Virus record (IMG/VR): IMGVR_UViG_3300045988_017739
Location: 1 to 40,361 of that record
Direction: 5' to 3' (one strand)
Origin: a virus
DNA: 40,361 bases
Made by a program: the position numbers and the translations under genes. Each line of letters begins with the position of its first letter. Positions within the stretch are counted from its first letter, which is position 1. Below the pieces are notes generated by a model, which was given only the letters and a program-made list of their open reading frames with translations, searched no databases and had not been told where the DNA came from. Shown here piece after piece: positions 1 to 40,361 of this stretch.

Positions 1-617
1 CTCTGGCTGGCTGCTGCCGCCCTCTGGCTGGCTGCTGCAGCGCTGGCGCTGTTGGTTGCCGTCTCTTCCAGTGCGTTGATCCGCGCCTGCGCCTCCTTCA
101 GCAGCTGATCTGTGGGGATCCGGGTCACGCTGTCCGACATGACGCCGCACAGGCTCTCGTCCAGCCGGGTGTCCGTGATGTTGCCTGCTGTGATCGCTGT
201 GGAGCCCGCCGGGCGGGTGATCTGGGCAAGGCACAGATCGTACAGCAGATTGGTGCGGGAGATCGCCGGGGCGGTGGGTGTGCTGGCAGGCGTGCCCTCC
301 AGCACCAGCAGATACGACTCCCGGGCTGCTGCATCGTAGCGCAGCACCACGCGGTCAATGCGCGGACGCTGTGCATCTGCCAGCGGTAGCGTCAGGGTAT
401 CGGGCTCCTGCTTGATGATGCTATAGCCCACATACTTCGCCGGGTGTACCCATGCCCGGCCTCCGCTCACCTTTACCGTGTAGCCACCTCCGGGGGTGAC
501 CGTGTAATCCTCCTCGGCACTGTACACGCCGGAAGTCCGTGCGGAGTTGTACCCGGCTGCGTCCGCGGCATCGTAGGTAATGCCGTCCAGCGGGTAGGTT
601 GTAACAATGGCACTCAA
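1..617 (-). CDS. Tail fibre protein, 5' part. The gene runs off the left edge and continues in frame at 40361..39882.
   Basis: TTG start at 617..615, 5 nt after RBS GGAGGTG (rc of 623..629). My translation is LSAIVTTYPLDGITYDAADAAGYNSARTSGVYSAEEDYTVTPGGGYTVKVSGGRAWVHPAKYVGY...RIDRVVLRYD...ITAGNITDTRLDE...INALEETATNSASAAAASQRAAAASQ. It is absent from the ORF track because there is no in-window stop. It sits directly after the tail-tip genes. Confidence 0.75.
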   Translation of the reverse strand, partial: MSAIVTTYPLDGITYDAADAAGYNSARTSGVYSAEEDYTVTPGGGYTVKVSGGRAWVHPAKYVGYSIIKQEPDTLTLPLADAQRPRIDRVVLRYDAAARESYLLVLEGTPASTPTAPAISRTNLLYDLCLAQITRPAGSTAITAGNITDTRLDESLCGVMSDSVTRIPTDQLLKEAQARINALEETATNSASAAAASQRAAAASQ

Positions 618-36572: not shown

Positions 36573-36905
36573 TTACATATCCTCCAAATTCACATCCGTA
36601 CTCATGGCGAGGTAGTCCAGCTGGGCCTGCACTCTGGCGCGGAAAATCTCGGCCTCGGACAACTCGCGCAAGACGAACCACCAGCGACCGTCCGGGGTGA
36701 CAGAGCCGGGCAGGATCTGTACCAGCTCCGCGTTGGTCATCGTGTAGCTCCGCTTGCCATCGGTACAGGTTACGCTGGCCAGCTTGCCCTCGAACTGGGC
36801 TGCGGTCAGCTCCTTGTCGGAGCAGAAGTTGTTGCCGTTGAGGGTCAGGCTGCTGATTTTGGAGCCATCAGCCAGCGTAACCTCCCATAACCTTTTTTCT
36901 TCCAT
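36573..36905 (-). CDS. Hypothetical tail-fibre-associated protein (XkdW-like position)
   Basis: 110 aa starting MEEKRLWEVTLADGSKISSLTLNGNNF at ATG 36905. The C-terminus is ...RARVQAQLDYLAMSTDVNLEDM. It overlaps the RT 3' end by 61 nt. Confidence 0.5.
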   Translation of the reverse strand: MEEKRLWEVTLADGSKISSLTLNGNNFCSDKELTAAQFEGKLASVTCTDGKRSYTMTNAELVQILPGSVTPDGRWWFVLRELSEAEIFRARVQAQLDYLAMSTDVNLEDM

Positions 36906-38074
36906 GTTGGGTCCTTTCCGAACAGCTCTCTGTACAGGCTGCTCATGTGCTGGATCTGCTGCCGGGACATATACCGGTAGTGGGCGCAGATCCATGACTT
37001 ATAAGCGTTCTCTATCTCTTGGCAGGTGATTCTCCCGACATCCAGTAGCCGCTTGTATGCTTTGAGTTTGCGCCGCTCGCGGGTGATCGACTTGGGATTG
37101 ATCCGGCGTGTGATCGTGCCGTCCTCCTTCAGGGAATAACACACCTGCAGGTGCCGGTACTCATCGGACAACCGGCAGATCCGGGTCTTGTGCTCGTTGA
37201 GGATAAGGCCCTGCGCCTTGCAGAGTGCCCGGACGGTGTCCAGCAGATCTACAAGGGTCTGCTTGTCCTTGCTGAGGGCGTAAAAATCATCTGAATACCG
37301 GCCATGCTCCGGGATGCCGCAAACAATCTTGATGTAATTATCAATCGGCAGCGGCAGGAAGATCCCGGCGTTCTGGGATACCTGATTCCCGATGTCAGCG
37401 CCCTTGCGCAGCATCTTCTCGCCGGTCAGGGCGGTCGCTGGTACGCCGCAGTTGAGCGTTGGGCTGACCTTGGTTTGATACATCCGGGCGATCTCCTTGT
37501 CGGAGAAGCGGGACACATCCAGCTCAAACGTCTGGAACGTACCGCGCAGATGCCCGTTGACCTCGGCCAACTCGGCAGGATCGGTGATCTCACGGGCAAG
37601 ATACCGGTCAAACTGATCAAGGCAGATGTCGTGATGGATGTTCGGGTAATAGCCGGAGAAATCGGCAAAGAGGCCAAAGCCTTCATTGGTGCCCTCCCGT
37701 TCGTAATACCGCCGCAGATGGATCTCAAACCGCCTGCGTTCAAGGTCAACACCTTTGCCCACCTGAGAGGCCGTGTTGTCGTACTGCAAATACTTCTGCA
37801 ACAAAGGGGTCAGGTACTCGTCACAGGTAACGTGATTCACCGCTTTGTCCCTTGTGGCGGCGCTGGTGATATACCGCTCGTGCCCGCGTTCCCGGATGGT
37901 AAAGCGGGTGCCCACCTTCGGGGTGTAGGTTCCGTTCTGGAGATCCTTCTGCAGCTTTGCTGTTTCCCTCAGCTTGTTGATCTCAAACAACTGCGTGTTG
38001 TACTTGAACTTTGAGCCCTTCATGGCCTTGGAACCGGCGTGGTATAAAATATTTGCGTCAGTGTATTTGCTCAT
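36845..38074 (-). CDS. DGR reverse transcriptase
   Basis: 409 aa. It carries the RT motifs, including ...GADIGNQVSQNAG... (the DGR-typical [I/L]GxxxSQ) and the catalytic RYSDDF (YxDD). It lies immediately downstream of a TR with a cognate VR. Confidence 0.9.
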   Translation of the reverse strand: MSKYTDANILYHAGSKAMKGSKFKYNTQLFEINKLRETAKLQKDLQNGTYTPKVGTRFTIRERGHERYITSAATRDKAVNHVTCDEYLTPLLQKYLQYDNTASQVGKGVDLERRRFEIHLRRYYEREGTNEGFGLFADFSGYYPNIHHDICLDQFDRYLAREITDPAELAEVNGHLRGTFQTFELDVSRFSDKEIARMYQTKVSPTLNCGVPATALTGEKMLRKGADIGNQVSQNAGIFLPLPIDNYIKIVCGIPEHGRYSDDFYALSKDKQTLVDLLDTVRALCKAQGLILNEHKTRICRLSDEYRHLQVCYSLKEDGTITRRINPKSITRERRKLKAYKRLLDVGRITCQEIENAYKSWICAHYRYMSRQQIQHMSSLYRELFGKDPTWKKKGYGRLRWLMAPKSAA

Positions 38075-38252
38075 TGCTTCTTACTAAAATTCCGCGTAAA
38101 AACAGCACAATAGGTTCATCAGTCGTAACCGGAGCCGTCACTGTTGACACCCACACAGGGGTATTTATCATGGGTCTACCATGAAAGGACAGTCTTTCCT
38201 TTCGCAGAGCTTCAAGGGGTCAAACCCCTATCGCGGGGAAGTTGCGAAATCA
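38075..38252 (-). ncRNA. DGR RNA spacer region between TR and RT (structured)
   Basis: Hairpins AGGGGT-caa-ACCCCT (38215..38229) and GAAAGGA-cagtctt-TCCTTTC (38183..38203). No ORF. The position corresponds to the Sp segment of DGR RNAs. Confidence 0.5.
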
Positions 38253-38927
38253 ACCCCCGACCGGACGCACGCCGTTGACATTGGAGGCGTTGTTGTAGTT
38301 GGCATTGCCATTGTTGTTGGCGTTGCCAAAATACGTGGCCGAAATAGTATGCAAAAACTGCCCTAATTCAGTAACTAAGGACTGAAGAGAAGATTCATCA
38401 TCAAACTTGCCGAAGCGCTTTTTGTCAGAGGCGCGCAGGCTCTTGGTGCAGGCTATGATCGTTTCGATCTGCAGCGCCAGCTCTGTATAGCGGTTGATGT
38501 TTACCGGGAGCGATTCCACAATATATTGCAGTTCATCGTGCAGCTGCCAGCTGGCAGAGATCGCATAATCCAGCTCTACCCGGCGGGCGTGATACTCGTC
38601 CGCGCAGGTGGGCCAGATGGAATTTGCGGCTCTCAGCCGCAGCGGGATCTGCCGGAACAGATCCAGCACACGATCACTTTCCCGGTCAATCATCCGGTGC
38701 ACAAAGGCGGTCTCCTCGTCCCTGATCCGCTGGATCTCGGCATCATACTCCGGCCCATAAGGCAGGGTAACGGTGCGGATCCGCTGCGCAATCCGGGCTT
38801 CCATCTTCTGCTTGCTCAACCCCAAAGAGCGGGACAGCAGATCCGTCAGGCTACGGCCAAGAGCCAAAGCCAGATGGTGGGCTTCCAGCCGGGACGGCTT
38901 GCGCTGACTTACAGGGACAGAGGACAT
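38250..38927 (-). CDS. avd: Avd-like DGR accessory protein. The ORF reads through TR.
   Basis: ATG 38927 (MSSVPVSQRK...) after GAGAAGG. The protein is helical and basic and lies between the target gene and TR, as avd does in BPP-1. The frame stays open through TR, ending ...ATYFGNANNNGNANYNNASNVNGVRPVGG. Confidence 0.55.
   Translation of the reverse strand: MSSVPVSQRKPSRLEAHHLALALGRSLTDLLSRSLGLSKQKMEARIAQRIRTVTLPYGPEYDAEIQRIRDEETAFVHRMIDRESDRVLDLFRQIPLRLRAANSIWPTCADEYHARRVELDYAISASWQLHDELQYIVESLPVNINRYTELALQIETIIACTKSLRASDKKRFGKFDDESSLQSLVTELGQFLHTISATYFGNANNNGNANYNNASNVNGVRPVGG
38253..38346 (-). repeat. DGR template repeat (TR)
   Basis: The 94-nt TR matches VR at 84 of 94 positions. Every mismatch is at a plus-strand T, which is an A on the coding strand. 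The region is rich in AAC/AAT codons. Confidence 0.9.
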
Positions 38928-38953
38928 AGAAAAACCTTCTCTCTTACTCACTC

Positions 38954-38976
38954 CCGGCGCGGACAAGCCGCGCCGG
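38954..38976 (-). promoter_or_regulatory. GC hairpin/cruciform just 3' of VR (DGR retrohoming-associated structure and/or terminator)
   Basis: CCGGCGCGG-acaag-CCGCGCCGG, a 9-bp perfect stem located 9 nt after the target gene stop codon. Confidence 0.55.
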
Positions 38977-38984
38977 ATTCAGGA

Positions 38985-39869
38985 TTAACAGATACCCCCG
39001 ACCGGACGCACGCCGCCGACATTGGAGGCGCCGTTGTAGTCGGCATTGCCATAGCTGTTGGCGATGCCAAAAAACGTGGCCGAAACAACGTCACGCAGCC
39101 AGCACCAGTAGGAGCGGGTAAAACTGTACTGCGGTGCGAGCCGGAACAGCGGCAGCTGCGACTTACAGACTGTGTAGTTCTGCGGGATGGTGCTGCCGTC
39201 AGACGCAGGAGCAAAGATATGGCTGCCGTACATCATGTTTTCGTTGGGCAGCTCGATGGTGCTGTCAAACCATGCGCCACCGGACGGCTTGCCGTTGCTG
39301 ACCGCGTTGACCAGCCACTCACGGTGGTTCAGGATGTGCGCCGCGCCAAAGGCGTTTGCAAAGGTCTGCTTTGCCTGATCCAGACTGGTCTTGTACATCT
39401 GAGAGCCGGCATAGCCGCCCTCGGAGGTGTTGGTCTCGTTCATGGCTGCGGTGTACAAATGGTTCTGCGGGATGACCACGACATGATGCTTGGTGCAAGG
39501 CGTGTCGCCGGTGTTCAGCCAGTAGTCAAAGCCCGCGATCAGGTAGTTTACGCCGCCGATAGACCAGTAATCGCCCAGATACAGATCCTGAAACGTGCCT
39601 GCGCTGATCTGCGCGGCCTGTGCAGACGTCAGACTGCCGCCCAGATTCTTGCCGCGGAACGTGGCGTTATGCGCGCCTGCGCCGTTGGGCACCATAATGC
39701 GGAGCATGGTGTCCTGCGCCATATCCGGGTTTACGATGCTCAGATCAGACAGGATCTTTGCCAGCGTTGCGCGCTGGGTGCTGTTGCCCTGCACAAGCAG
39801 CTGATCCGTCTTGGATACAGTGCCTGCAACAGGAAGCTGTGTGATAGGAATACGAGTGTCGCCTGCCAT
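38985..39869 (-). CDS. DGR target protein (Mtd-like receptor-binding / tail-fibre tip protein with a C-terminal variable region)
   Basis: 294 aa with RBS AAGGAGG overlapping the tail-fibre stop. The C-terminus ...YWCWLRDVVSATFFGIANSYGNADYNGASNVGGVRPVGGIC carries VR. This kind of C-terminus is typical of C-type-lectin-fold DGR targets. Confidence 0.8.
   Translation of the reverse strand: MAGDTRIPITQLPVAGTVSKTDQLLVQGNSTQRATLAKILSDLSIVNPDMAQDTMLRIMVPNGAGAHNATFRGKNLGGSLTSAQAAQISAGTFQDLYLGDYWSIGGVNYLIAGFDYWLNTGDTPCTKHHVVVIPQNHLYTAAMNETNTSEGGYAGSQMYKTSLDQAKQTFANAFGAAHILNHREWLVNAVSNGKPSGGAWFDSTIELPNENMMYGSHIFAPASDGSTIPQNYTVCKSQLPLFRLAPQYSFTRSYWCWLRDVVSATFFGIANSYGNADYNGASNVGGVRPVGGIC
38994..39087 (-). 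repeat. DGR variable repeat (VR)
   Basis: Counterpart of TR, offset +741 nt. Substitutions fall at VR positions 39016, 39017, 39031, 39032, 39041, 39053, 39055, 39064, 39073 and 39086. Confidence 0.9.
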
Positions 39870-39881
39870 AAAGTAACCTCC

Positions 39882-40361
39882 TTAGGCAAATTGGATTTTT
39901 CGGGTAGCGAGAAGTGCGGATCCGTCAGAAGCGCACAAAAGGGAGCCATCGGTCAGGGTGACATGATACTGCACCTCGCCGGTGATCAGCATATTGTGTA
40001 GCCATGCCATCATATCGCCGGATGCTTTTGCATCAGCGGGGGCGCTGTCCATGGACAGGGTTTTGTCCGTGCCCGCCTTCGTGCCGGCTTCTGCTGCAGC
40101 CTTCTTTGCCGCGGCTTCGCTGGCAGCTGCCGCACTTTGCGAGGCTGCCGCTGCCTTCTGGCTGGATGCTGCTGCGCTGGCACTCCCGGACGCGCTGGAC
40201 GCACTGGAGGCTGCTGCGCTCTGGCTGTCTGCAGCTGCCTTCTGACTGGATGCTGCGGCGCTGGCACTGTTGGCGGCCGCGCTCTGGCTTCTGGATGCTG
40301 CATTGGCACTGTTGGCAGCGGCGCTCTGGCTGGCTGCTGCCGCCCTCTGGCTGGCTGCTGC
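39882..40361 (-). CDS. Tail fibre protein, 3' part (continuation of 617..1 across the circular junction)
   Basis: The frame is open from the window end to TAA (rc of 39882..39884). My translation is AAASQRAAAASQSAAANSANAASRSQSAAANSASAAASSQKAAADSQSAAASS...AAKKAAAEAGTKAGTDKTLSMDSAPADAKASGDMMAWLHNMLITGEVQYHVTLTDGSLLCASDGSALLATRKIQFA. It is in phase with the left-edge ORF once the 38-nt overlap is collapsed, giving 1,059 nt or 352 aa in total. Confidence 0.75.
   Translation of the reverse strand, partial: AAASQRAAAASQSAAANSANAASRSQSAAANSASAAASSQKAAADSQSAAASSASSASGSASAAASSQKAAAASQSAAAASEAAAKKAAAEAGTKAGTDKTLSMDSAPADAKASGDMMAWLHNMLITGEVQYHVTLTDGSLLCASDGSALLATRKIQFA

Follow-up and report, generated by a model that had tools for sequence, protein, structure and literature searches.

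Diversity-generating retroelements (DGRs) are defined by adenine-specific mutagenic retrohoming from a template repeat (TR) to a variable repeat (VR), as in the mtd-avd-TR-brt cassette of Bordetella phage BPP-1. Faecalibacterium prausnitzii is a keystone, health-associated commensal of the gut, and few of its phages have been characterised. DGRs of temperate gut phages, including those of Faecalibacterium prophages, are well documented (PMC11792537, PMC5883640, PMC10743442, PMC6199706). Here, a DGR is described in IMG/VR record IMGVR_UViG_3300045988_017739, a stretch of 40,361 nucleotides of viral DNA that was analysed as a whole and is referred to below as the window. A complete DGR aimed at a tail-fibre-tip protein had been proposed for the window from its nucleotide sequence (the original prediction), and the reverse transcriptase (RT) motif, adenine-only differences between TR and VR, a hairpin, a structured TR RNA and turnover of the VR between samples were all found in place. 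The probability that the region is a canonical, functional DGR of a temperate siphovirus of F. prausnitzii was estimated at about 92%.

The locus follows the plan of BPP-1 in the order of its parts, namely tail fibre, target with the VR at its 3' end, accessory gene, TR abutting the accessory gene, RT, lysis genes and att. The two systems further share adenine-only TR-to-VR differences, an SQ motif in the RT, a hairpin after the VR, and an 11-12-bp duplex between a segment upstream of the TR and spacer nucleotides ~56-70, followed by a short stem-loop with adenosines and by a further bulged stem capped by a tetraloop. They differ in the RT, which has 409 aa here and 328 aa in BPP-1, with 25% identity to BPP-1 Brt that is limited to the N-terminal fingers region (137 residues), and in the TR, which is 94 nt long here as compared with 134 nt in BPP-1 and lies in frame inside the accessory open reading frame (ORF). 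The accessory protein of the window has 225 aa, a near-neutral pI and no sequence similarity to Avd of BPP-1 (bAvd), the target is unrelated in sequence to Mtd, and the host is a Gram-positive gut anaerobe.

Closer to the window in habitat are the Faecalibacterium prophages Mushu, Lagaffe, Roos, Pioen and Lelie (PMC11792537, PMC5883640), which share the host genus and temperate lifestyle and carry DGRs that act on structural or tail proteins, some of them with DUF6273-type similarity. However, their RTs are 26-27% identical to the RT of the window, and megablast detected no nucleotide similarity between the window genome and any deposited phage; by these measures, the phage is therefore a lineage separate from the known Faecalibacterium DGR prophages. 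The closest cultured relative is Acutalibacter phage Fontainebleau (ON453893), whose RT, target (311 aa) and accessory protein are 52%, 45% and 38% identical, respectively, to those of the window. Fontainebleau has the same cassette placed between tail and lysis genes, but its host is Acutalibacter muris of the mouse gut and its accessory ORF of 184 aa ends before the TR. The RT is annotated in the Fontainebleau record and the DGR is not.

Template and variable repeats

The TR (38253-38346, minus strand) and the VR (38994-39087, minus strand) form a direct repeat in register at an offset of 741, and the coordinates given for the two 94-nt copies in the original prediction were reproduced. The VR codes for residues 262-292 of the 294-aa target. 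The copies differ at the same ten TR positions as predicted (38275, 38276, 38290, 38291, 38300, 38312, 38314, 38323, 38332 and 38345), each of which is a T on the plus strand, i.e. an A on the minus coding strand. Hence 10 of the 24 TR adenines and none of the 70 other positions are affected, and the chance of ten random mismatches all falling on the 24 adenines is C(24,10)/C(94,10) = 2.2e-7. The predicted TR and VR peptides, with recoding of AAC/AAT Asn codons to I, S, Y, D and G, were obtained as well. The adenines of the TR are distributed over codon positions 1 and 2 (12 in each), with none in position 3.

The TR is not intergenic; the final 31 codons of the accessory ORF (225 aa) consist of it, in the reading frame of the VR. 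The order tail fibre, target, accessory gene, TR and RT was confirmed from the ORFs and from public assemblies. One of the ten mismatches stands apart from the others. At 38345, the same A-to-G change is present in 11 of 12 related genomes, and the TR of the twelfth itself has G at this position. Position 38345 probably represents a fixed difference located at the 5' edge of the homing tract or outside it, so that nine variable differences remain in the window. At their 3' ends the TR and the VR share a GC-rich sequence, GTGCGTCCGGTCGGGGGT, after which the copies diverge. A BPP-1-style IMH/IMH* pair of near-identical sequences was not evident.

Reverse transcriptase

The RT gene (36845-38074, minus strand) encodes the predicted motifs IGNQVSQ and YSDD, located at residues 228 and 260, respectively. 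The (I/V/L)GxxxSQ motif in RT domain 4 is characteristic of DGR RTs (PMC3521204), and [IL]GxxxSQ is kept in 106 of 120 homologues of the window's RT. On the basis of the SQ motif together with YSDD, the protein is assigned to the DGR-type RTs. It matches the PHROG 1423 reverse transcriptase family at 3e-41 and Pfam RVT_1 with 32.9 bits, barely above the threshold, as a divergent member of that family.

The best NCBIfam match is the group II maturase model TIGR04416, with 40 bits as compared with a cut-off of 300, and matches to retron and Drt (DRT) models are weak and far below threshold. An Rfam search over the window revealed no group II intron or retron RNA.

Turnover of the VR and its loss in relatives

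Activity of the cassette was assessed by comparison of 12 near-identical cassettes or genomes from independent samples, each sample being represented by one consensus sequence. The 12 genomes carry 11 distinct VRs and three TR variants, each of the latter off by one single-nucleotide polymorphism. The TR-to-VR differences are located at TR adenines in 164 of 165 cases, and 23 of the 24 adenines are changed at least once. Outside the VR codons the target is close to invariant at the protein level across the samples, and the accessory/TR ORF is 96-99% conserved. Given 11 distinct VRs in 12 genomes with near-identical flanks, turnover of the VR is faster than background divergence. VR variation confined to the positions of TR adenines had been named beforehand as the decisive pattern, and it was seen in this between-sample comparison. 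The cassette is recently active, and the differences between samples point to activity in the window genome. Among the 31 related loci found via the RT, 28 have at least 92% of their TR-VR mismatches at adenines.

A natural control is provided by a relative that has lost the cassette (L043:10001-11030; also L044-L046). It is an F. prausnitzii prophage adjoining tmRNA/smpB, with a target gene 84% identical to that of the window and with the VR and the hairpin kept. A clean deletion of 1.9 kb, which begins immediately past the VR hairpin and ends ~150 nt ahead of the RT stop codon, has taken out the accessory gene together with the TR and the bulk of the RT. At least 11 cluster representatives with differences elsewhere have one and the same VR peptide of this relative, SATLFAGVDCFSGADRLSASAVSG, and the exact protein is present on at least 49 contigs. 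Thus, the VR is frozen in the absence of the cassette.

Two further groups of relatives carry altered TRs. In L056 (3582-3675), L057 and L058 (ERZ28658806, SRR12159144 and SRR12159141), which belong to the same phage lineage, the TR has nine substitutions at ancestral adenines and retains 16 adenines as compared with 24 in the window; only four of them are also found in the VR of that genome. The eroded TR is also visible in the protein clusters, as the accessory variant P0149. Adenine mutagenesis seems to have acted on this TR, through either self-homing or conversion from VR to TR. In L025 (4738-4835) and L020 (4739-4837), corresponding to IMG/VR UViG_3300045988_010864 and _057662, with RTs 66-68% identical to that of the window, the TR is in its normal place and contains no adenines. 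The upstream and spacer flanks of these TRs are normal, and the targets are of the short form (~294 aa). Judged from their TRs, diversification is no longer possible in these adenine-free DGRs.

As a tentative and rather doubtful reading, the relatives could be arranged as successive stages of DGR decay (intact, partly eroded, burnt out and deleted), with the window as the intact stage. If the TR is eroded because mutagenised cDNA occasionally retrohomes into it, such DGRs would inactivate themselves over time. Erosion of the TR would also change the TR-encoded C-terminal tail of the accessory protein.

Hairpin and RNA elements

A GC-rich hairpin with a 9-bp stem and a CTTGT loop (38954-38976, minus strand) starts 17 nt after the VR. 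A hairpin is found at the same distance in all relatives, with stem sequences that differ in a covarying manner and with the CTTGT-type loop kept. BPP-1 requires a hairpin/cruciform downstream of the VR, according to the published account (PMC3240598), and by analogy the element at 38954-38976 is a putative target-recognition hairpin/cruciform.

The 178 nt that separate the TR from the RT gene (38075-38252, minus strand) form a conserved, structured spacer RNA. Compensatory changes were found by RNAalifold at 22 of 33 pairs. In the alignment, 92.3% of cells are paired, as compared with 40-54% after the 3' partners had been shifted along, and the observed values were not reached in any of 500 shuffles. 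The spacer is further linked to the region upstream of the TR by a long-range duplex of 12 bp, one arm of which lies 7-18 nt upstream of the TR (38353-38364, minus strand) and the other, the Sp arm, at spacer nt 56-67 (38186-38197, minus strand). This duplex was found by an ungapped local-duplex search, which replaced duplex prediction over the whole region, the output of the latter being noisy. It covaries in ten relatives, being uninterrupted over 11-13 bp in six divergent ones, each with its own sequence, and having one internal mismatch in the four others.

Within the spacer, a helix is formed by 38243-38249 with 38200-38206, and a conserved GAAAGGA is also present. The duplex is followed by a stem-loop (38168-38184) and then by a conserved GAUAAA. 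A bulged 9-bp stem with a UACG tetraloop (38113-38136) is enclosed by a helix of 38139-38143 with 38103-38107; all of these elements are on the minus strand. The bulged UACG stem resembles the putative Avd-binding stem-loops of many DGRs, but is located ~115 nt into the spacer instead of directly after the TR.

In the BPP-1 ribonucleoprotein (RNP), an 11-bp duplex is formed between avd 369-379 and Sp 59-70 and is followed by a short stem-loop and adenosines (preprint 10.1101/2023.10.23.563531, section 7), and the 'cPRT Stop' is the point at which cDNA synthesis ends (preprint 10.1101/2023.10.23.563531). By comparison with this structure, 38353-38364 would correspond to the avd strand in the 'cPRT Stop' duplex of BPP-1, and functions in cis-priming and in stopping cDNA synthesis may be assigned to the RNA elements of the window.

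Accessory protein

The accessory gene (38250-38927, minus strand) is called as 225 aa in public assemblies as well, and its product has been deposited as DAM26765.1. In the AlphaFold model (pLDDT 80) the protein is a helical bundle, confident at residues 11-176, with a disordered TR-encoded tail (residues 195-225). The highest-probability Foldseek matches were the PF05635 structures 2gsc and 2rld, with a TM of 0.79-0.80 (target-length normalised), a probability of 0.99 and E ~0.9; a BFVD entry named 'Avd-like protein' was also matched, with a probability of 1.00 and E 0.09. The 'avd-like' label of the original prediction thus fared differently at two levels. No match to Avd was obtained from the sequence, whereas Avd-family four-helix bundles came out top in Foldseek, with E-values that are non-significant. 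By phmmer, the accessory family comprises at least 246 representative clusters (50% identity) at E <= 0.001, and PF05635 was touched by one of 67 family members (E = 0.015). The protein is regarded as an enlarged, highly divergent Avd-like protein, with putative membership in that family.

The TR-encoded tail was considered as a conserved feature of the accessory proteins. A first search found it in 24 of 29 members, but was biased by seed words supplied by the tail itself. When phmmer was run with the N-terminal 187 aa, the tail was present in ~19 of the top 150 representatives (~13%), and RT-anchored relatives at 66-69% identity are without the accessory-TR fusion. Since relatives lack the fusion, few representatives carry the tail and the tail is predicted to be disordered, conservation was rejected, and the tail is most likely an incidental read-through into the TR that abuts the gene. 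In the read-through members (alignment A3, P0405-P0528), the C-terminus is a copy of the VR peptide that is rich in Asn, undiversified and predicted to be disordered.

Target protein

The target gene (38985-39869, minus strand) encodes a putative receptor-binding tip protein of 294 aa, with the VR at the 3' end of the ORF. It follows directly after the TMP-Dit-Tal-fibre genes and is the last gene of the tail module. About 4700 homologues were found, in two size classes (~294 aa and ~442 aa). Over its C-terminal 232 aa, the target shares 51% identity with the C-terminus of Lactobacillus phage JCL1032 ORF23/ORF474, annotated as a tail fibre, and the match covers the stretch equivalent to the VR (WLR..VSA...GVRP..IC). 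The JCL1032 copy of the domain is fused to a 474-aa fibre, with neither an RT nor a TR beside it, and is a form of this tip that does not undergo diversification.

In both JCL1032 ORF474 and LL-H Gp71, the conserved C-terminal region has been implicated in adsorption specificity (title of reference B12, PMC3870949). Mutations of LL-H that affect host range are located in the C-terminal part of Gp71 (PMC3870949, section 5). These data from the homologous region support the assignment of the 294-aa protein as a receptor-binding tip.

The fold of the target was addressed separately. No family match was found in Pfam, PDB searches with the sequence and with a profile gave no match, and the target profile had no hhalign match to Mtd. 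The part of the original prediction that places the target at the tail-fibre tip is supported by the position of the gene after the fibre and by homology to the JCL1032 tip, while a C-type-lectin fold was not confirmed.

Proposed mechanism and alternative explanations

In the proposed mechanism, a single transcript that includes the accessory gene, the TR and the spacer would fold into a structured RNA, in which the 12-bp duplex between the segment just upstream of the TR and spacer nt 56-67, together with the adjacent stem-loops, would bracket the TR in the arrangement of the BPP-1 RNP. The RT, probably with the Avd-like helical-bundle accessory protein, would copy the TR to cDNA and misincorporate opposite adenines. 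The cDNA would then replace the VR at the 3' end of the 294-aa gene, with targeting by the identical GC-rich repeat end and the hairpin 17 nt downstream. In this way, fourteen codons, mostly AAY Asn, would be randomised, and the surface of the receptor-binding tip, hence adsorption specificity, would be changed.

A number of results weigh against a functional DGR with an Avd-like protein and a receptor-binding target. Its activity here is read from differences between samples, with one consensus sequence for each. Searches of solved structures with the RT sequence gave a group II intron maturase as the sole match. The accessory protein had no match to Avd or another family in Pfam, NCBIfam, PHROGs, PADLOC and PDB profiles, hhalign against bAvd gave a probability of 0.2 with no similarity, and all of the fold matches have non-significant E-values. 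Its pI of 7-7.8 is not basic, as compared with ~9.5 in a typical Avd (PMC5758913). The AlphaFold2 model of the target, built from a 29-sequence alignment, was unusable at pLDDT 39, and weak matches to DUF6273 in 4 of 29 target homologues (E = 0.02) hint at a C-type-lectin-like domain, DUF6273 being described as C-lec-like (PMC10743442).

Three alternatives were weighed. It is very unlikely that the DGR is silent or a relic in the window genome, with VR differences between samples left over from past activity or produced by recombination of alleles. Such a state would be compatible with the use of one consensus per sample, with the decay seen in relatives (partly eroded TRs, adenine-free TRs and cassette deletion) and with the lack of variation of several Faecalibacterium prophage DGRs after induction (PMC11792537, discussion). 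However, all ORFs are intact, the TR retains all 24 adenines, and near-identical flanks enclose 11 different VRs in 12 genomes with changes confined to adenine positions, which recombination would not respect. It is also unlikely, with a small but appreciable chance, that the target binds mucus, environmental glycans or a secondary receptor instead of the host receptor, in which case host range would be unaffected by diversification. Ligands of this type have been proposed for other gut-phage DGR targets (PMC11792537, discussion; PMC10743442), a separate 352-aa fibre-like protein is encoded upstream of the target, and no fold could be assigned from the model of the target. Binding to the host receptor is favoured by the location of the target as the last gene of the tail module and by its homology to the C-terminal tip of the JCL1032 fibre, the region implicated in adsorption specificity (PMC3870949, reference B12) and, in Gp71 of LL-H, affected by host-range mutations (PMC3870949, section 5).

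The third alternative, an ordinary duplication with random divergence accompanied by a retron, group II intron or defence RT, has a negligible probability. The RVT_1 score barely exceeds its threshold, the best NCBIfam and PDB matches of the RT are to group II maturases, and there are weak DRT and retron matches, but these are far below the family cut-offs (40 bits as compared with 300), no intron or retron RNA was detected by Rfam, and the SQ motif is specific to DGRs (PMC3521204). As for the repeats, mismatches are exclusively at adenines in the window and in most of the ~30 relatives, by which random divergence is effectively refuted. A canonical, functional DGR is retained as the best reading of the region.

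Phage genome and host

The window represents a complete phage genome in circular form, whose ends overlap by 38 nt (1-38 and 40324-40361), so that its true length is ~40,323 bp. The genome was already public in IMG/VR. On the minus strand, the genes for the tape measure, Dit, a Sipho_Gp37-type tail protein, the 352-aa fibre-like protein, the 294-aa target, the 225-aa accessory protein and the RT follow in this order, and 3' of the RT lie a 110-aa ORF, XkdX, an M15 peptidase and a holin; the integrase gene is next, on the opposite strand. Scans of the window with Rfam models and for tRNAs gave no match.

The gene for the 352-aa tail-fibre-like structural protein is split across the circular junction, with its 3' part at 39882-40361 and its 5' part at 39-617 (minus strand). 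When the window ends are joined without the 38-nt overlap, the fibre protein is identical to the product of the L001 gene at 353 of 353 positions. It is located after the TMP, Dit and Sipho_Gp37 genes and matches PHROG structural and tail-fibre families. Within 40117-40361, repeats with periods of 21 nt and 42 nt code for an Ala/Ser/Gln-rich, heptad-like shaft (AAASQxA...), which is likely a coiled-coil stalk of variable length.

Junctions between prophage and host in public assemblies showed that the phage is integrated at a tRNA-Tyr(GTA) gene, and the flanking genes encode proteins identical to F. prausnitzii IlvD, KARI, PFK and alanine symporter. Given the tRNA-Tyr junction and the identity of the flanking proteins, the host is assigned as F. 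prausnitzii. The tRNA-Tyr(GTA) gene adjoins the prophage in at least three chromosomal contexts, next to ilvD, the alanine symporter gene and PFK (L047:8397-8481, L050:8395-8480 and L053:8395-8479), which suggests that several tRNA-Tyr copies or several host strains are used. On contig L054, genes for a serine recombinase and RelB/ParE are present beside the prophage instead. Labels of metagenome-assembled genomes (GTDB) name Barnesiella intestinihominis, Ruminococcus bromii and Duodenibacillus as hosts of related contigs (L002, L004 and L005). These labels were rejected as unreliable, the binned contigs being short, and the DGR-bearing phage contigs that carry them are probably mis-binned.

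A second related phage region was found in L037 (ENA ERZ1743991 NODE_80, 67 kb). Its integrase is identical to that of the window and its lysogeny and replication gene content is the same, but its tail tip is different, consisting of a 434-aa protein and three Gp10_C-domain proteins, and it has a GH25 lysin and no DGR. Either the receptor-binding module has undergone modular exchange or the contig is a chimera of assembly.

Significance

The mechanism is already well documented in gut phages, and the window is a clear further example of it. What is added here is evidence for activity at the population level together with a natural deletion control, a BPP-1-like RNA architecture in a distant lineage, and a family of accessory proteins that Avd sequence models do not detect. 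Because of this, surveys may score DGRs of this type as having no accessory protein. The presence of a BPP-1-like RNA in a distant Gram-positive gut phage supports the generality of the cis-priming and stop mechanism. The intact, eroded and deleted versions present in public metagenomes form a built-in comparison set, which could be used to measure the rate of DGR tail-tip diversification in the human gut and the effect on host range once diversification stops.

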